This document shows positions 7,825-32,324 of a DNA stretch of 64,000 nt, piece by piece (position 1 is the stretch's first letter; every line of letters starts with the position of its first letter). A model generated the notes under the pieces. It was not told the origin of the DNA and did no database searches. It worked only from the letters and a program-made list of their open reading frames with translations. The stretch is from the sequence record MT446416.1; one strand, given 5' to 3'. A program made the position numbers and the translations under genes. The stretch comes from Escherichia virus TH47.

Positions 7825-8559
7825 TGATATATTTTCTAGAACAATTTGAATATGATCTTCATCGTATTTTATTCTCAACAATTTAATATTATTTTGATTA
7901 CAATAATCATTCTTTATTTTATCATTTTTCTGAGTTAGTTTTAGTTTTTCTTTACCACCCCAACCACATGATTCAAAATGTTGAAGACCATCATATTCAA
8001 TACACATATTAAACGTTGGAAGATAAAAATCAAATCTCAAAGGAAGTATATTTTTACAATCATCAAACGTTTTTTCCATTACACACGATACATTTTTCAT
8101 ATCCAAAATGTTACGTATGTCTTTAACTGCCTTTGACATTTTATCAGATATTGCACATTTAATACAACCCTTTCCTGATAAATGGTCATTTGCTCTTTGT
8201 AAAAAATCACCATGTATTTTACAAGTTATAGTGAGTTTTTGTTTGTTGTTTTTGCCATATACAACTTTATCATAGTTATATCTATCACTATGTATTTTAT
8301 AAGATTCCTCAATGAAGGTTTCAGTTGTATGTTTGGAACGTCTTGAACATTTAGTACATCCAGCACCTCTGTAATGGACTTTAACAAATTGCTCATAATC
8401 ACCATGTATTTTACAAGTTACAATAACTTTTGAATTTACATTCTCATATACTGTTTTATCATATAAGAATATATCACCATAAATTGATTTTGATTTTTCT
8501 ATAAATTGTTCTGTTGTTTGCTTTTTATTATTTGCACCCATAACCGTATCACCTAACAA
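7822..8559 (-). CDS. putative homing endonuclease (tandem Cys/His repeats plus C-terminal Vsr/DUF559-like nuclease fold)
   Basis: Two N-terminal repeats (TTExFIEx...YDKxVY...CKIHGDF...GxGCxKC) and C-terminal FDFYLP...CIEYDGLQHF resembling a restriction-endonuclease-like fold. Flanked by hairpin terminators on both sides. Confidence 0.5.
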   Translation of the reverse strand: MLGDTVMGANNKKQTTEQFIEKSKSIYGDIFLYDKTVYENVNSKVIVTCKIHGDYEQFVKVHYRGAGCTKCSRRSKHTTETFIEESYKIHSDRYNYDKVVYGKNNKQKLTITCKIHGDFLQRANDHLSGKGCIKCAISDKMSKAVKDIRNILDMKNVSCVMEKTFDDCKNILPLRFDFYLPTFNMCIEYDGLQHFESCGWGGKEKLKLTQKNDKIKNDYCNQNNIKLLRIKYDEDHIQIVLENIS

Positions 8560-10250: not shown

Positions 10251-11318
10251 TTACTTACCTTGTTGTTTCAAACGAGCAACTAGTGCAGATGCAGAAAGTT
10301 GTTCTTTTGGAGCTTCAGCTACTGGTGCTGGTGCAGTAGCTACTGGTTCAGCAGCAGGAGTAGGAGTAGCTACTGGTGCTTGCGGTGCAGGAGTTTGTGC
10401 AGGAGCAGGTTGTTGTACTGGAGCTTGTGGAGCAGGTTTGTTTTCACTAATAGTACCAGTTGTTGGTTTTTGTACACCTGCTGGACGGTAAGCGAAAGCC
10501 CAACGTGCAGGGTCATAAGGTTTACCATCAACAGATGCTTCGAACATTTCTTCGATAGCTTTTAGTTCTTCTGGAGTTGGTTGTTTTGGCATAAAATCAT
10601 TTAGATTATATAGACCAAACTTTTCAATCGCTGCTAGTTCTTCTTCATTGAGTGGACGCTCGGACATGGAGAATTGAGACATGTCATAGCTATTGTAACC
10701 ACCACCATTCTTAGTTTTAACAATACCAAAGTCACGACCATGAATATAGTGAGTTGGTAGTTCTTTGATGCCTGGATTTAGCAGGATAGATTTAACTTTA
10801 TCAAAGATATCTTTGTTAGCTAGGATACGACGGATTGGGTTTTCTGGAGCAATATCGTCTTTTACTGCTACGCTATCAGGAGCAACGAAACATTGCATTA
10901 GATAGGTTTTCTTTTTCCAGTAACGACCAGCCATTGCTTTCAGTTCTTCGTTTCCAGTTTCATTCGCACTTTGGAACCATTGACGTACTTCTTTAAGAAT
11001 TGGACATGATTTAGGAACCCACATTTCGTTACATGGTACTTGAACGGTAACTTTATCAGTGTGCATACCAACAATACCTTGGAACGTTAGGTTGATCATA
11101 TCACGTTCACGCCAGAAGAATGGGTTAGACTCATCAGCATCTGGTAGAAAACGTAGGTTTAGTGGTTCATTGTAAGGGACATTCCAGAAAGCTAGGAAAG
11201 AATCGGCTTTACGGTCGCCTGTAAATGTACCATTCTTCTGTGCTTCTGCTTTTTCTTGTTCAGCTTTTAGTTTTGCACGAATTTCAGCTAGAGTTTGCAT
11301 ATTGGGCTTCCTTGTCAT
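10251..11318 (-). CDS. 32: gp32-like ssDNA-binding protein with Pro/Ala-rich C-terminal tail
   Basis: N-terminal LNLRFLPDADESNPFFW resembles the T4 gp32 core (IRFLPSKNDEQAPF); His/Cys cluster HTDKVTVQVPCNEMWVPKSCP; strong AAGGAAG SD. C-terminus is a PAPQAP-type low-complexity linker. Confidence 0.75.
   Translation of the reverse strand: MTRKPNMQTLAEIRAKLKAEQEKAEAQKNGTFTGDRKADSFLAFWNVPYNEPLNLRFLPDADESNPFFWRERDMINLTFQGIVGMHTDKVTVQVPCNEMWVPKSCPILKEVRQWFQSANETGNEELKAMAGRYWKKKTYLMQCFVAPDSVAVKDDIAPENPIRRILANKDIFDKVKSILLNPGIKELPTHYIHGRDFGIVKTKNGGGYNSYDMSQFSMSERPLNEEELAAIEKFGLYNLNDFMPKQPTPEELKAIEEMFEASVDGKPYDPARWAFAYRPAGVQKPTTGTISENKPAPQAPVQQPAPAQTPAPQAPVATPTPAAEPVATAPAPVAEAPKEQLSASALVARLKQQGK
10290..10440. 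repeat. imperfect short tandem repeats (GCAGGAGNN / GCTACTGGT units) encoding the Pro/Ala-rich tail of gp32
   Basis: Repeated gctactggtgct, gcaggagtaggagta and gcaggagcaggt units on the plus strand, within the 3' end of gene 32. Confidence 0.6.
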
Positions 11319-11462: not shown

Positions 11463-16718
<5,256 letters not shown>

Positions 16719-16722
16719 GATT

Positions 16723-16806
16723 TGATAAATAATATCATAGAGATCAGGGAATATTGCCTTAAATTTAAATGTGGTTTATATTTTTTGATAAATAATATTA
16801 AGCAGG
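16723..16806 (+). promoter_or_regulatory. two GATAAATAAT boxes upstream of the Ala-rich gene pair
   Basis: ttGATAAATAATatcata at 16723-16732 and ttGATAAATAATattaag at 16797-16806, the latter about 35 nt before the ATG at 16841. Confidence 0.45.
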
Positions 16807-16840
16807 GTGTTCCTGCACAAAATTTGACAAGGAGATTTTT

Positions 16841-17440
16841 ATGAGTCTTAATTCTTTTAACCGTAACTATGGTATGTCTGCTACTGCTCGTGAATACTGG
16901 GGTGGTAACAATGGTTTCGTAACCATCGTTGTTGATCTACCAGCAGATGTTGAAGTTGGTACTACCGCTGTTACTTCTGACGGTTCCGAAATTCAAGATG
17001 AAGCACTACAAACTGCAATCAGTAATGCTCAATACAACCAATTCATGATTACCCAACTACTACAACAACGTGCAGTACTAGTTACTACTTCCGTACTAGC
17101 TCTAGACACCGCTGTTGTTATCCCTGCTGACTTTAAAACCGTTGGTGGTAACGTAATCGCGTTTGGTACTAGTGGTACTGATGTTGCAGGTGGTGCTGGT
17201 TCTGTTGCTCTAACCTTCATCTGTGAACGTCAAGACGTATTTGACAAACAAGAAGTTCGCCCAGGTGCTGCTTACTCTGTTCCAGTTGATCCAACTGTTG
17301 AACTAGCTAAAGCAATTGCACAAGCTAAATTCTTCCGTACCAAATCTTATGTTGCTCTAGGTACTGATGGTGTTGGTGATGCTGCTGCGGCTGACGCTGT
17401 TGCAATTAAAGTTCGTGCTGCTCTACCAGTACAACTATAA
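16841..17440 (+). CDS. Ala/Val/Thr-rich protein (199 aa), paralog A of a tandem pair, unknown function
   Basis: Strong SD (AAGGAGA); shares QQRAV(L/I)(V/I)(T/A)TS and (L/V)TF(I/L)(C/V)ER(Q/A)(D/N)VFDK blocks with the next gene; on the opposite strand to all flanking genes. Confidence 0.7.
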   Translation: MSLNSFNRNYGMSATAREYWGGNNGFVTIVVDLPADVEVGTTAVTSDGSEIQDEALQTAISNAQYNQFMITQLLQQRAVLVTTSVLALDTAVVIPADFKTVGGNVIAFGTSGTDVAGGAGSVALTFICERQDVFDKQEVRPGAAYSVPVDPTVELAKAIAQAKFFRTKSYVALGTDGVGDAAAADAVAIKVRAALPVQL

Positions 17441-17455
17441 TAGGGGGACTACAAT

Positions 17456-18145
17456 ATGTCTAATACTAATACTTCTTTTGAACGTATCAATGGTTATTCC
17501 TTTGATAAAATTCTAGGTTACTTCTGTGGTAAAAACGCCCTAGCATCTATCGCAATTAGTAAAATTGGTAATGTTAACGTGCGTGTTACTGGTGCAGTTG
17601 GTTCTTTCGCTGGTCTACAACGTTTCCTAAACACTGACGTAGCTGATGAAATCGTTGCATATCTAAACGAAAAAGGTATCATCCGTATCGATGGTACTCC
17701 ATTTGAAGCAGCAACTCTAGAAGCTGATTATAACGCTGCTTACGCTGCACAAACTAACGTTAAACGTATCGTTGATGTTGTTCAACAACGTGCAGTTATC
17801 ATCGCTACTTCCGAAATCGCTGGCAACGACGCTGAGCCATTTGCAGTTACTGGTTTTACCAACGCTGCTGACGGTATCCTAAGTGTTGGTGCTGTTGATA
17901 TCGCTAGTGCTTCAGTAGTTACTTTCCTCGTTGAACGTGCTAACGTATTTGATAAAGATATTCAATCTTTCCAAGGCGTTCCGAGTACTGAGATCGAAGA
18001 AGGCCGTCTACTAATTGATGACCTAACCGCAGTTCCACTACTCGCTAAAGATGGTGTTACTGAAGTTGTTCTACGTTCCCAAGCTGCTGATGCTGCTGGT
18101 GACTTCGGTATCAAACTATTCAAATTCATCCCAGCGATGGTTTAA
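17456..18145 (+). CDS. Ala/Val/Thr-rich protein (229 aa), paralog B of a tandem pair, unknown function
   Basis: SD AGGGGGA 8 nt upstream; paralogous to 16841..17440; followed by a bidirectional hairpin terminator. Confidence 0.7.
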   Translation: MSNTNTSFERINGYSFDKILGYFCGKNALASIAISKIGNVNVRVTGAVGSFAGLQRFLNTDVADEIVAYLNEKGIIRIDGTPFEAATLEADYNAAYAAQTNVKRIVDVVQQRAVIIATSEIAGNDAEPFAVTGFTNAADGILSVGAVDIASASVVTFLVERANVFDKDIQSFQGVPSTEIEEGRLLIDDLTAVPLLAKDGVTEVVLRSQAADAAGDFGIKLFKFIPAMV

Positions 18146-18162
18146 TAAATTAAAGATAAAAG

Positions 18163-18193
18163 AAAAGGAGAGCTTTTGCTCTCCTTTTTTATT
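18163..18193. terminator. bidirectional rho-independent terminator
   Basis: aaaaGGAGAGCttttGCTCTCCtttttt: 7 bp GC-rich stem flanked by an A-run and a T-run, between convergent genes ending at 18145 and 18189. Confidence 0.7.
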
Positions 18194-18914
18194 TGTATGA
18201 ACGGAACCCTTCAGGTAAACCAGGTAGATTCTCTAACCCTTCGTTCGCATTCACTAGCTTTACGTCATAATCATCACTGAAATCATCCGTAGCTAGTTTA
18301 CGCCCCATGTCTCTAACGAAGTTGTCAATAATTTCTTCTTCGTCATTACCTGGATGACCTTCCGCTTTTAACTTTTTCCAAAAGTATTCATTATAATCAA
18401 AAACAAATTCAACTTCATTTGTTTCTGGATTAAGTACTACATCCAAATCAATCCAAGGTTCTTTACGTAAAGTAAAGATTTCCTTTGAATACTCTTGTTG
18501 TGTAATCTCTTCATAACGATATGCAAACTCGATAGCTTTAAGACGTTTGTCATCACCATCAGGCATTAGTTCGATTACTTCCATATCATACTCTTTTTGA
18601 GTAATTGCACCAGTACTCAATTTGGCATCAAGTAATTTTACATTATACTCATCACGGGTAATCTTGGAATACTTCAATTGTACATCTGCCTGTGCTATTA
18701 GATAATCAAGAGTTTCTAATACATTGTATTTCTTTTTGATATCCAACTGTGCTACATCAACTTCATATGGTGTTAGATATGTAAGTTCTGCAACTAACAT
18801 ATCAGCTTCATAATCATCGTTATAGTAGTATGCTTTCGCAATCTCTTTCGCTTTTCCAGAAAGTCCCCAGTGAGCGGGGACCATCCAGAAAGGAATAAAC
18901 CTTTTTTTAGCCAT
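18189..18914 (-). CDS. hypothetical protein (about 241 aa)
   Basis: Track ORF begins at a TTG; first ATG (MAKKRF) is at 18914 and overlaps the stop of the upstream GroES-like gene by 8 nt. Confidence 0.5.
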   Translation of the reverse strand: MAKKRFIPFWMVPAHWGLSGKAKEIAKAYYYNDDYEADMLVAELTYLTPYEVDVAQLDIKKKYNVLETLDYLIAQADVQLKYSKITRDEYNVKLLDAKLSTGAITQKEYDMEVIELMPDGDDKRLKAIEFAYRYEEITQQEYSKEIFTLRKEPWIDLDVVLNPETNEVEFVFDYNEYFWKKLKAEGHPGNDEEEIIDNFVRDMGRKLATDDFSDDYDVKLVNANEGLENLPGLPEGFRSYK

Positions 18915-19209
18915 TTGATTTCTTACCAAAAATTTCTTCAATTTTCATCACATAATATGTGTCTTCACCACCACCAAGATCTTCAGTGATAGGAGTGTTT
19001 AGTGATGAACGACCGAATACAACCATATCACCAACACAAATATTATGTTCTGCAATTTGTCCATTAGGTAGTACTTTACCTTCACCAACTGAAATCACCA
19101 TACCAACACATGGTGGTTCAACGTTTCCTAGGATAATACCACCAGTACTTTTATTCTGTGCTTCAATTTGACGAACCAGTACATAATCGTTAATCATTTT
19201 AATTTTCAT
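18907..19209 (-). CDS. GroES-like co-chaperonin (Cpn10 family)
   Basis: About 100 aa with Cpn10 pattern: YVLVRQIE...STGGIILG...GMVISVGEGKVLPNGQ...VGDMVVFGR. Start MKIKM at 19209 with GGAGG SD. Confidence 0.6.
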   Translation of the reverse strand: MKIKMINDYVLVRQIEAQNKSTGGIILGNVEPPCVGMVISVGEGKVLPNGQIAEHNICVGDMVVFGRSSLNTPITEDLGGGEDTYYVMKIEEIFGKKSNG

Positions 19210-19482: not shown

Positions 19483-19486
19483 ATAT
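19477..19486 (-). promoter_or_regulatory. late promoter-like box TATAAATAAT upstream of the zinc-ribbon gene
   Basis: Minus-strand reading gctaaTATAAATAATgggg, immediately after the clamp-like gene stop and before a hairpin. Confidence 0.4.
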
Positions 19487-20217
19487 TAGCAACCAGTTAC
19501 GTAAATCTTGTATACCGCAATACCAGTGTCTAGAGTTACGTTTAGCATACCAGTTTTGGTAATACCTAGGGTAACAGATTCTGCGTTAGAAACGCGAGAT
19601 AGAGCTTGTAGAACACGGTCAATGTTATAACCAAAACCAAGACCTAGTTCACCTTCAGTTTTAGAGAATGCTAGTGCACCAACGTGGTTACTTTTGTTCT
19701 TCTCACCAACGTGGAAGTAAAGAGTATCACCTTCAGTGTATGGAGTTACTAGAGAACTGAAAGATTTAAACACACCAGAGAAGCTTTTTAGTTCCTGAAC
19801 TTTAGCTGCACTAGGTGTAACCTGTACGTCATATGGTTGTTCGTGGAAACGAGGCTGGGCTGGAATTAGTTTTTCTGGTTGAACCATGAAAGTAGTACTT
19901 GCATCTTCTGCTTTGAATGCTAGGCTCTTAACTGCACCATCTTTCAAATTAGAAGTGATAGTAGTTCCTTCAGTACTATAAGTTTTTAGAGACATTAGAC
20001 CCTGTAGAAGACCTAGGTTACCAAGACCAAAACGACCTTGAACTTCTGGTACGTTTTCTTTAGTGTGAGCACGCATAACTAGGGTGCGGTCATCGGTGTA
20101 TGCTTCCATGTAAACACGCTGTCCATCACCACGGTCTTCACTGCTAACTGCGATACAAGAAAAGTCGATGCCGTTGGTAGTGTTAACTAGGTCACGTAGT
20201 ACGTTGCGTAGATCCAT
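19486..20217 (-). CDS. possible sliding clamp (gp45-like), tentative
   Basis: 243 aa, similar size to T4 gp45, with loose N-terminal resemblance (VLRDLVNTTNGIDF vs LLKNFATINSGIML). Preceded by a TTGAGA-N18-TATAAT promoter and GGAG SD. Confidence 0.35.
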   Translation of the reverse strand: MDLRNVLRDLVNTTNGIDFSCIAVSSEDRGDGQRVYMEAYTDDRTLVMRAHTKENVPEVQGRFGLGNLGLLQGLMSLKTYSTEGTTITSNLKDGAVKSLAFKAEDASTTFMVQPEKLIPAQPRFHEQPYDVQVTPSAAKVQELKSFSGVFKSFSSLVTPYTEGDTLYFHVGEKNKSNHVGALAFSKTEGELGLGFGYNIDRVLQALSRVSNAESVTLGITKTGMLNVTLDTGIAVYKIYVTGC

Positions 20218-28317: not shown

Positions 28318-29493
28318 TTACATGAAAGTAACGTTTTTGATAGCGATTTTGCTGTAGTAGTCAGCAGCATTACCAAGAGATGAAGTACTGTCGGTTAGCT
28401 GAACGTAGCCATAGCGTGTTAAAAATGTCGTGACTAGCTCACCAGTGTTAGGGTCCATTACAGTACCGGAAGCCATTAGTGGGATGTATGGGCAATAGAA
28501 CACACCAGCATCAGTTTCAGCATTACCTTTATAACCAATCAAAATGTCCTCGACATCGCTGGCATACGTGTCTACAAAAATACGCATGGTGCTGTTTAGA
28601 GTACCAACAAATTTAACGTTAGTTGGAGCTTCGAAAGTACCTTCAGTAGTACGTGCAAAACTAGAAGTAGTTGCAGACTGTAGAATGGTTAGAGCGGTTG
28701 GAGAAACAACAGCCCAGTTCGCAGCACCACGTTTGGTACGACGAGCAACTTCGTTCGCTTGACGGTTGATTAGGGTAGCTAGAGCAGCGTGCTCGTCACC
28801 AACGAAGGTCGCAACACCAGTAACTTTAGATTGGTCATAAGTTACAGCAGCAGCACCAGGTAGTGCACGTAGACGGCTTAGTAGCTCTTGGTCGATTTCA
28901 ACGGTAACTTCTTGAGCGATTGCAGCCATTAGTTCAGCTTCAACGTCGATACCATGTTGGGATTGTGCATCTTGTGCAGATTCAACAGTCCAACGTGCAG
29001 ATAGACGACGAGATTTCGCTTCAACAGTTTCACGTAGAATACGGATGTTAACGCGACGACCCATAGTACCTTCTAGTTGACTAGTAGGAGCAGCTTGTGG
29101 GTTGCTGTTGTCTGCGTTTAGGTCACCAGTATAAGACTTAGCGATTTTGTATGGAGAAAGCATTTCTTCACCAGCGATAACACCAGGAGCGTTGTCAGCA
29201 TATTGAACACGTAGGGTGTGGATCTGACCAACTGGGCCAGTCATTGGCTGAACACCGATGATTTCGTTAGCGATTACGGTTGGCATAACACGACGCATAA
29301 TTGGTAGAATCACTTTGTTTAGAGTAGCGATGTTACCAGCGGTGGTTGCACCAGAAGTAGCAGATTCGTTTAGCATTAGTTTACGATGGTTATCAAGTAC
29401 GGTTTCCATTACGGACTTACGAGTACCTTGTAGACCTTCAACTAGTTTCTCTTTAACTGCTACCCATTTGGATTCATTTAGTAGTTGTGACAT
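28318..29493 (-). CDS. 23: major capsid protein, gp23 family (compact, 391 aa)
   Basis: IANEIIGVQPMTGPVGQIHTLRVQY and VEAKSRRLSARWTVESAQDAQSQHGIDVEAEL match T4 gp23 blocks; TATAAATA about 45 nt upstream; terminator downstream. Confidence 0.9.
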   Translation of the reverse strand: MSQLLNESKWVAVKEKLVEGLQGTRKSVMETVLDNHRKLMLNESATSGATTAGNIATLNKVILPIMRRVMPTVIANEIIGVQPMTGPVGQIHTLRVQYADNAPGVIAGEEMLSPYKIAKSYTGDLNADNSNPQAAPTSQLEGTMGRRVNIRILRETVEAKSRRLSARWTVESAQDAQSQHGIDVEAELMAAIAQEVTVEIDQELLSRLRALPGAAAVTYDQSKVTGVATFVGDEHAALATLINRQANEVARRTKRGAANWAVVSPTALTILQSATTSSFARTTEGTFEAPTNVKFVGTLNSTMRIFVDTYASDVEDILIGYKGNAETDAGVFYCPYIPLMASGTVMDPNTGELVTTFLTRYGYVQLTDSTSSLGNAADYYSKIAIKNVTFM

Positions 29494-31417: not shown

Positions 31418-32224
31418 TTAGATTTTTGGTTGTGATTTTGGTAGTGGAGAGCGAGATTTAGAAGCAGTATTTTTTGGCTTCGCAACATCTTTCATTTCGC
31501 CACGAGCATTTTTACCTAGGTCTTCATCAGTGTGAGACATAGCATCTTCGTTTTCAAAATCATAATCTACTTGTTTTTCGGAAGCTTTAGCGAATTTCAC
31601 TGGAGCAACACCTTGAACTGGAGATTTAGCTTCTGGAGCAACTGGAGACTTGGTATTAACGCCAGCTTTTTCTTTCTTATCAACCGCAGCAACTTGCTTA
31701 AGTTTGAAAGACTCACCAACTTTCTCATCACCGAATTGTACATCAGCAAATTCGTCTTCAGATTCTTCACCATCAGCACCAACTTCAACTTCGTCTTCAG
31801 AACCTAGGTCAACTTCATCACCGCCGATTTCGTCAAACATTTGTTGTAGGCCACGGAAAGCATCTTGAATAGATTCCCATTGGTCTTCGGAAGGAACTTC
31901 TGCACCAACTTCTGCTTCAGCGTCAACTTCTTCGCCATCAGCATCAGCAGAGAATTCAACTTCTTCTTCTGCACTTTCATCTTCTTCACCTAGGGTGTAT
32001 TCGATTTCAGCATTTAGACCTGCGTCGGGTTGAACATCAAAATCTTCGTCAAGTTTTTCTTCGTCTTTGACTTCACATTCTTCTTCGTCCATGCTTTCTT
32101 CTAGTTCTTTATTGATTTCTTGAGCTTGCTCAACAAAGTACTTACGCATTTTTTTATCAGCAACATCTTGTTCGCCGTTTGCAAACGCTTCAATTGCTTC
32201 TTGTAGTAGTTTTAAATTCGCCAT
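31418..32224 (-). CDS. acidic prohead core protein candidate (gp67/68-like by position)
   Basis: Very acidic low-complexity protein between portal and protease. Start moved to MANLK (GGAGGA SD); TAAATAAT motif upstream. Confidence 0.5.
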   Translation of the reverse strand: MANLKLLQEAIEAFANGEQDVADKKMRKYFVEQAQEINKELEESMDEEECEVKDEEKLDEDFDVQPDAGLNAEIEYTLGEEDESAEEEVEFSADADGEEVDAEAEVGAEVPSEDQWESIQDAFRGLQQMFDEIGGDEVDLGSEDEVEVGADGEESEDEFADVQFGDEKVGESFKLKQVAAVDKKEKAGVNTKSPVAPEAKSPVQGVAPVKFAKASEKQVDYDFENEDAMSHTDEDLGKNARGEMKDVAKPKNTASKSRSPLPKSQPKI

Positions 32225-32324
32225 TATATCCTCCATAGATATATTACATTCATATAAAGTATGATATTATTTAGTACTGAAAAATTTCGCCATTTTTAAA
32301 AGCTTTAAAAAGTGCGATTTTTGT

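Follow-up and report, generated by a model that had tools for sequence, protein, structure and literature searches.

The two genes considered here lie side by side on the plus strand of a 64,000-nucleotide stretch of DNA from Escherichia virus TH47 (sequence record MT446416.1), called the window below. They code for two related proteins, p1 and p2, both Ala- and Val-rich and acidic, and are flanked by predicted expression signals. In order along the window, the features of the locus are the following.

16724-16735, plus strand: distal late-promoter-like box GATAAATAATAT, an exact 12-mer with its core ATAAATAATA at 16725-16734
16787-16798, plus strand: proximal late-promoter-like box GATAAATAATAT, with its core ATAAATAATA at 16788-16797
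16802-16816, plus strand: leader hairpin GCAGG-loop-CCTGC, directly after the proximal box and ahead of the ribosome-binding site of gene 1
16829-16835, plus strand: Shine-Dalgarno sequence AAGGAGA of gene 1, from sequence reading
16841-17440, plus strand: gene 1, p1-type paralog, 199 amino acids, 20.8 kDa, isoelectric point (pI) 4.5
17443-17448, plus strand: Shine-Dalgarno sequence GGGGGA of gene 2, from sequence reading, inside the gap between the two genes
17456-18145, plus strand: gene 2, p2-type paralog, 229 amino acids, 24.3 kDa, pI 4.5
18161-18190, both strands: bidirectional intrinsic terminator, with a 13-bp stem and T-runs on both strands

Both open reading frames (ORFs) coincide with the two adjacent plus-strand genes, of 199 and 229 amino acids, proposed in a first-pass annotation of the sequence. 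They are separated by 15 nucleotides, in which neither a promoter nor a terminator was found by terminator prediction and sequence reading. Compared by BLASTP, p1 and p2 aligned over 83 amino acids with 35% identity (E=1e-6), and the alignment takes in both blocks, QQRAV... and ...ER.(D/N)VFDK, which that annotation had quoted as conserved between them. Both proteins matched profile phrog_9326 (PHROG 9326), which bears the label "virion structural protein" and is specific to RaK2-like phages: p1 with E=1.7e-82 (residues 1-199 on profile positions 1-195 of 195) and p2 with E=1e-80 (residues 4-229 on profile positions 2-195 of 195). When 1.84 billion representative proteins were searched exhaustively by profile, only 42 matched. 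Each member long enough to be classified belonged either to a p1-type clade, which has the N-terminal motif REFWGGNNGFVTV, or to a p2-type clade, which has LGYFxGxNAxVSVAV there, and the split between the two clades is deep. Since the whole family divides in this manner, the duplication predates the known family diversity; the BLASTP result, the common phrog_9326 match and the two clades all agree with the ancient tandem duplication that had been proposed. Outside both clades there remained two short fragments and a 1054-amino-acid repeat protein, P0159 (E=1e-6), which was regarded as spurious, as its alignment covers only an Ala/Tyr-rich helix.

The distribution of the family is narrow. Escherichia phage vB_Ec-M-J and seven other Asteriusvirus isolates match the region of the window with 99.5% identity, and 121Q, PBECO4 and phAPEC6 match it with about 82%. 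At the protein level, the 73 phage records with relatives all belonged to RaK2-like jumbo phages (of enterobacteria, Xanthomonas and Vibrio). Protein p1 is 100% identical to EcMJ_352 of vB_Ec-M-J, and p2 is 100% identical to database cluster P0044 and to EcMJ_351 (locus L001, 9857-10543), both genes being annotated in vB_Ec-M-J as coding for virion structural proteins. The named orthologs are the following.

p1 orthologs: RaK2 gp107w (ORF107w), phAPEC6 gp210, CBB_271, 121Q gp618, GAP32 gp265
p2 orthologs: RaK2 gp106w (ORF106w), phAPEC6 gp211, CBB_270, 121Q gp617, GAP32 gp264

The novelty implied by the first-pass annotation did not hold: the genes already stand in GenBank as coding for virion structural proteins, and publications have dealt with their products from 2013 on. 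The family is an already known one because mass spectrometry has detected the orthologs in virions. The statement of the same annotation that the genes have no T4 counterpart was upheld, as neither protein has a family in Pfam or NCBIfam and the sole PHROG match is specific to RaK2-like phages. Two sub-threshold matches, PF19858 (E=0.031) and TIGR03278 (24.9 bits against a cut-off of 350), were treated as chance. The GenBank label of phAPEC6 gp211 as a haemagglutinin repeat was not adopted, the 229-amino-acid protein being without a Pfam family at E values up to 1. Distant p2-type members carry a C-terminal extension of about 80 amino acids, whose PHROG matches to baseplate wedge and head-closure proteins (E 0.004-0.0008) were too weak to be used.

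Concerning the surroundings of the pair, the gene order rnh (minus), p1 and p2 (plus), virion protein and GroES (both minus) is kept in 24 related loci. Order and strands are identical at L001-L003 and L006-L025, with a single copy at L024. This latter locus (positions 8001-8558 of IMG/VR contig 3300033072_000210) belongs to a divergent RaK2-like lineage and has a p1-type gene alone at the conserved site, so the p2-type paralog seems to be dispensable or replaced in at least one lineage. In L025, a contig more divergent than L024, both paralogs are kept. The pair is conserved in all RaK2-like lineages, irrespective of their tail fibres or hairs. Its neighbourhood is one of head and packaging genes, with the terminase, a GroES-like gene and, 10 kb away, the capsid gene, while the sheath and tube genes lie about 87 kb from the pair in vB_Ec-M-J (pair at 216.8-218.1 kb).

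The nearest other credible plus-strand genes in the window are a 117-amino-acid ORF at 1653-2006 and those from about 36.8 kb onward, and the opposite-strand block in which the pair stands therefore measures about 34.7 kb. This is in line with the first-pass description of the only plus-strand genes within roughly 35 kb, as is the annotation of vB_Ec-M-J, where EcMJ_331 to EcMJ_372 are all on one strand, this pair excepted. The 117-amino-acid ORF deserves a separate comment. It matches phrog_11637 over its full length (E=1.2e-54), has a ATAAATAATA box upstream (1609-1618) and falls in what is a 398-nucleotide unannotated gap of vB_Ec-M-J; the minus-strand ORF that overlaps it (618-1829) starts to match its own family only at residue 78. 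It has the appearance of another small late gene on the opposite strand, overlooked in current annotation.

The T4 late promoter is TATAAATA. The ATAAATAATA motif is an extended version of it, and the phage has a gene for a late sigma factor; for these two reasons the ATAAATAATA boxes are read as putative late promoters. The motif occurs six times in the window, compared to 0.74 expected occurrences, and none of 100 shuffles reached six. Besides the two boxes of the pair, the proximal one 43 nucleotides upstream of the gene 1 start codon, three further sites stand directly upstream of the genes for the major capsid protein, a 434-amino-acid virion protein and a tail lysozyme-domain protein, and the sixth, at 1609-1618, precedes the 117-amino-acid ORF. 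At the other end of the unit, the terminator also closes the convergent minus-strand gene of a virion protein (18189-18941), and in phage G17 a terminator feature is annotated at the corresponding place. The promoter boxes, the strong Shine-Dalgarno sequences and the bidirectional terminator had all been noted in the first-pass annotation; the enrichment of ATAAATAATA, the AAGGAGA and GGGGGA sequences, and the 13-bp stem, which scores on both strands, agree with it.

The leader was compared across 12 related loci of four genera (Asteriusvirus, Alcyoneusvirus, Mimasvirus and Eneladusvirus). The distal box is kept in most of them, the proximal TTGATAAATAA is near-invariant in the loci of all four genera, and the AGGAGA ribosome-binding site of gene 1 is kept in the ten closest loci. 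The leader hairpin has five pairs by RNAalifold, four of which remain paired although both sides have changed in one sequence or more. The stem of RaK2 is a compensatory GTAAG/CTTAC, and some genera add a sixth pair. Taken alone, the hairpin sequence also folds, both in the window and in phage BF, and no equivalent leader hairpin was found in the region upstream of the capsid gene. It would be placed at or near the 5' end of a late transcript and may serve to stabilise the mRNA.

The products of the orthologs are prominent in published virion proteomes. For RaK2, sodium dodecyl sulfate-polyacrylamide gel electrophoresis resolved the two proteins as visible bands, and their coverage in mass spectrometry was 53-55% (PMC3622015); since the bands run at the predicted mass, these orthologs undergo no maturation cleavage. 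In phAPEC6, gp210/gp211 were covered to 69.8% and 69.9%, between the sheath (68.0%) and the capsid protein (74.9%) (PMC7247149). In CBB, the p2 ortholog CBB_270 had a coverage of 91.3%, at the top of 55 virion proteins, and the p1 ortholog CBB_271 one of 56.4% (PMC5259590). The three data sets, in which the orthologs have coverages on a par with those of the major capsid protein and count among the most abundant virion proteins, agree with the earlier guess that the pair codes for abundant structural proteins.

Codon usage was analyzed in 132 non-overlapping ORFs, taken from the window and from 86 kb of a near-identical genome that include the tail genes. The strongest bias of all the ORFs was that of the pair, with the lowest effective number of codons (29.5-29.8) and the top fraction of preferred codons (0.75), as compared to 0.70 for the capsid gene (28318-29493, phrog_138), 0.60 for the sheath and at most 0.56 for the tube paralogs. 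The leucine codon CTA, which is rare in E. coli, accounts for 12 of 13 and 13 of 15 leucine codons in the pair, 26 of 31 in the capsid gene and 16 of 22 in the gene of the single-stranded DNA-binding protein (10251-11318). No tRNA genes were found within the window; the preference for CTA would be explained if the phage carried a tRNA-Leu(UAG) outside it. Taken together with the two tandem late boxes, the strong ribosome-binding sites and the structured leader, the codon bias argues for expression of the pair at or above the level of the capsid protein.

In two other minus-strand ORFs the codon bias is similar to that of the capsid gene, the preferred-codon fraction being 0.66 (19486-20217) and 0.71 (31418-32236). 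The former codes for 243 amino acids and belongs to phrog_12062; its phAPEC6 counterpart, matched on gene order and size, is gp215c, covered to 26% in the virion. The latter, of 272 amino acids, sits in the head module. The products of both may be further abundant head-assembly proteins.

Structural models of p1 and p2 were built with AlphaFold2 on an alignment of 91 sequences and were predicted with good confidence, the predicted local distance difference test (pLDDT) being 88.5 and the predicted template modelling score (pTM) 0.83 for p1, and 83.2 and 0.78, respectively, for p2. Both display a flexible yet conserved N-terminal arm, a mixed alpha/beta body and one long helix, with an additional helical insert in p2. 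So, the models do not sustain the earlier description of the proteins as simply beta-rich. The arm has the pattern R-x-x-G ... G-x-N-[GA]-[FL]-[VA]-[TS]-[VI] in both paralogs and contains residues that do not vary between them.

Comparison of the models with known structures gave no clear relative. Foldseek returned nothing from the PDB at E <=0.001, and the viral models of BFVD gave only homologs and uncharacterised phage proteins. A sequence search of the PDB, with the single sequences and with the 91-sequence profile, produced nothing below E of about 0.2. Domains of ferredoxin-like beta-alpha-beta-beta-alpha-beta topology (ACT, ribosomal protein S6, HPPK, EF-G domain IV/V) were matched with partial coverage and 4-14% identity, with no functional motif in common, and the ferredoxin-like core is read as a generic common topology rather than as evidence of relationship. 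The beta-sandwich of tube and Hcp-type proteins is not present in the models, and neither fold nor sequence similarity was found to the known decoration folds (beta-tulip gpD/SHP, Ig-like Hoc, Soc and OB-fold Dec). In the literature that was searched, no high-resolution structure of any RaK2-like phage was found. The cryo-electron microscopy of phiKp24, with an assigned tube and a decoration-free capsid, was considered as close-relative evidence and dropped: this phage was judged not closely related, because its capsid protein has about 590 amino acids and its capsid is of triangulation number T=27.

Considering all these data, the interpretation that we favour, tentatively and at somewhat less than an even chance, is that p1 and p2 are cement or decoration proteins of the capsid surface, possibly forming a heteromer. 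The outside of the capsid shell is favoured because the genes stand in a head and packaging neighbourhood and the proteins are acidic, uncleaved and conserved in every lineage; the box in front of the pair is also the same as that upstream of the capsid gene. The virion association of the orthologs, a codon bias above that of the capsid gene, the invariant residues of the arm and the unassigned densities of published capsid maps count in its favour too. Both genes would be co-transcribed late from the tandem T4-type late promoter boxes, in a transcript that would run through the short structured leader and stop at the shared bidirectional terminator. A very high translation rate would then give the acidic paralogs, one of about 21 and the other of about 24 kDa, which would enter the virion uncleaved and in high copy, as published proteomics has shown for the orthologs. 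There they might form an accessory cement or decoration layer on the capsid lattice, possibly as a p1:p2 heteromer, and could dock to the capsid through the conserved N-terminal arm common to both.

Such a layer could account for one of the external densities seen on 121Q and phAPEC6, the capsids of which have T=28. The maps of these two phages, of the 10-Å class, contain decoration densities that their authors could not attribute to any gene product. An elongated external protein, at about one copy per capsid protein, forms a network of ridges spanning local two-fold axes; a dimer-shaped protein at the hexamer centres anchors the capsid fibres; and there are an extra density at the vertices and an internal inner body of 91 x 18 nm. 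A more specific version, in which p1 and p2 form a pseudo-symmetric heterodimer with a fold unseen in solved virus structures and are the missing T=28 cement of all RaK2-like phages, either as the zig-zag ridge network or as the hexamer-centre hub, is to be considered doubtful.

Several points weigh against a place on the capsid surface. The RaK2 authors label both proteins "putative tail protein" (PMC3622015). The phAPEC6 authors allow that the ridge density may be an extra domain of the capsid protein itself, and three small phAPEC6 proteins of high coverage, gp347, gp306c and gp253, are alternative candidates for the decoration densities. None of the known decoration folds is recognisable in the models, and mass spectrometry coverage and codon bias are only rough proxies of copy number. 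Besides, the L024 lineage keeps the p1-type gene alone, which makes an obligate heterodimer doubtful.

Among the other locations considered, an internal one would have the pair make up the bulk of the inner body rod, packaged with the DNA and perhaps ejected with it. Bubblegram imaging shows the rod in the heads of 121Q and phAPEC6, no homolog of phiKZ inner-body proteins was found, the genes of the pair are nearer to head genes than to tail genes, and by our estimate the volume of the rod equals several hundred copies of the 45 kDa pair, which fits its abundance. However, the internal proteins of T4, which contact DNA, are basic, and both they and the inner-body proteins of phiKZ are processed by the prohead protease. 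The proteins of the pair have instead a pI of 4.5, and they show neither the N-terminal targeting peptide that the prohead protease cuts off in both types nor the basic, DNA-contacting character of the T4 type, as the RaK2 orthologs are uncleaved according to the literature and CBB_270 is covered to 91%. In addition, the phAPEC6 authors preferred RCC1-like "DNA condensation" proteins for this role. The inner body is regarded as an unlikely location. Fibres are a very improbable one. The long "hairy" capsid and tail fibres of phAPEC6, 121Q and CBB have unassigned hair proteins and, at each hexamer centre, a dimer-shaped anchor, so that building blocks or anchors of these fibres could be looked for in the pair. 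But fibres of 119 nm require fibrous proteins, and both models are compact alpha/beta globules. Moreover, the pair is equally conserved and abundant in RaK2, whose micrographs are reported to show elaborate tail-fibre spikes and not hairs (PMC3622015), and according to the CBB authors whiskers are undescribed in any other published RaK2-like phage (PMC5259590). An anchor at the hexamer centre overlaps with capsid decoration and is not a competitor of it.

Concerning the tail, the RaK2 authors proposed in 2013, on the basis of size, abundance and predicted beta content, that one of the proteins was the tail tube, and listed both as putative tail proteins (PMC3622015). A decoration of the sheath or of the collar ring could also be thought of, since the tail map of phAPEC6 has, both at the collar and at the distal tail, elongated decoration proteins that are unassigned. 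The pair is indeed similar in size to the tail tube proteins of myophages (T4 gp19 type; phrog_4542 and 13438) and, like them, highly abundant, but it has no fold match and no profile match to them, either in PHROG or in Pfam, and its genes are not adjacent to the sheath gene. That position is taken in vB_Ec-M-J by three separate tube paralogs, EcMJ_284-286 (127.8-133.5 kb), which follow the 887-amino-acid sheath gene EcMJ_282 and match the tail-tube PHROGs 4542 and 13438 with E=1e-80 to 1e-225. As the sequences of these paralogs gave no match in the PDB, their assignment rests on the PHROG names and the sheath-adjacent position. Their phAPEC6 counterparts gp273c-275c, matched on predicted mass and sheath-adjacent position, were found in the virion (PMC7247149), and hhalign gave a probability of 0.1% for the family of the pair against the tube paralogs of the phage itself. 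As for the collar and distal decorations, they amount to 12 copies each, too few for genes with a codon bias stronger than that of the sheath. So, the 2013 suggestion of a tail tube for the RaK2 protein is not supported, and a tail location as a whole seems quite improbable.

Apart from the pair, the large terminase gene in the same neighbourhood (12810-14454, minus strand) showed an unusual arrangement. It consists of two overlapping ORFs, of 114 and 445 amino acids, and at their junction (about 14170-14191) an extra C stands directly before the Walker A codons, in the form CAG ATG C GGA AAA ACA ACC. The GKTT codons of the Walker A motif are in the +1 frame, where a stop lies eight codons upstream. 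A segment of 161 nucleotides is 100% identical in eight independently sequenced phages; two coding sequences are annotated in seven of these, and in one of the eight the upstream piece is labelled "hypothetical". The terminases of relatives are uninterrupted or contain an intein, and read ...TARQMGK... or ...TARQLGKTT... at this place; that of UE-S1 has an intein-like insert after CAG ATG GGT AAG. In frame A, the codon at the junction is CGG, which is not used once in 14 tabulated genes. A functional P-loop seems to need a +1 shift at this CGG codon, and the arrangement is a candidate for either a programmed +1 frameshift or a split terminase.

Among cultured coliphages and Klebsiella phages, the RaK2-like ones belong to the largest, and their use in therapy is under consideration. 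In their virions, only the capsid and sheath proteins are more prominent than the pair. The pair was confirmed, but it was known before; the present work narrows the options for its place and brings no surprise. Its new contributions are the codon-bias case for a probable expression at capsid level, the division of the family into two deep clades, the conserved architecture of putative promoters and leader, the confident predicted models without a clear structural relative, and the evidence that counters the tail-tube suggestion. To locate the pair would lead to a complete molecular inventory of the T=28 capsid and could reveal a new reinforcement of very large shells; the AlphaFold models of p1 and p2 can be docked into future maps.

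The known systems closest to the pair are its orthologs in RaK2, phAPEC6, 121Q, CBB and GAP32. Homology to them is full-length, with 60-100% identity, and extends to gene order, flanking genes, promoter boxes, leader and terminator position, with no substantial difference. The established decoration proteins T4 Soc and Hoc, epsilon15 gp10, lambda gpD and GP4 gp1 differ from the pair in that they share no sequence or fold similarity with it and that its own binding to the capsid is only putative. Yet they are like p1 and p2 in being small, late, uncleaved and of a copy number similar to that of the capsid lattice. Of these proteins, epsilon15 gp10 and Soc sit between the capsomers, and Hoc is placed at the hexamer centres.

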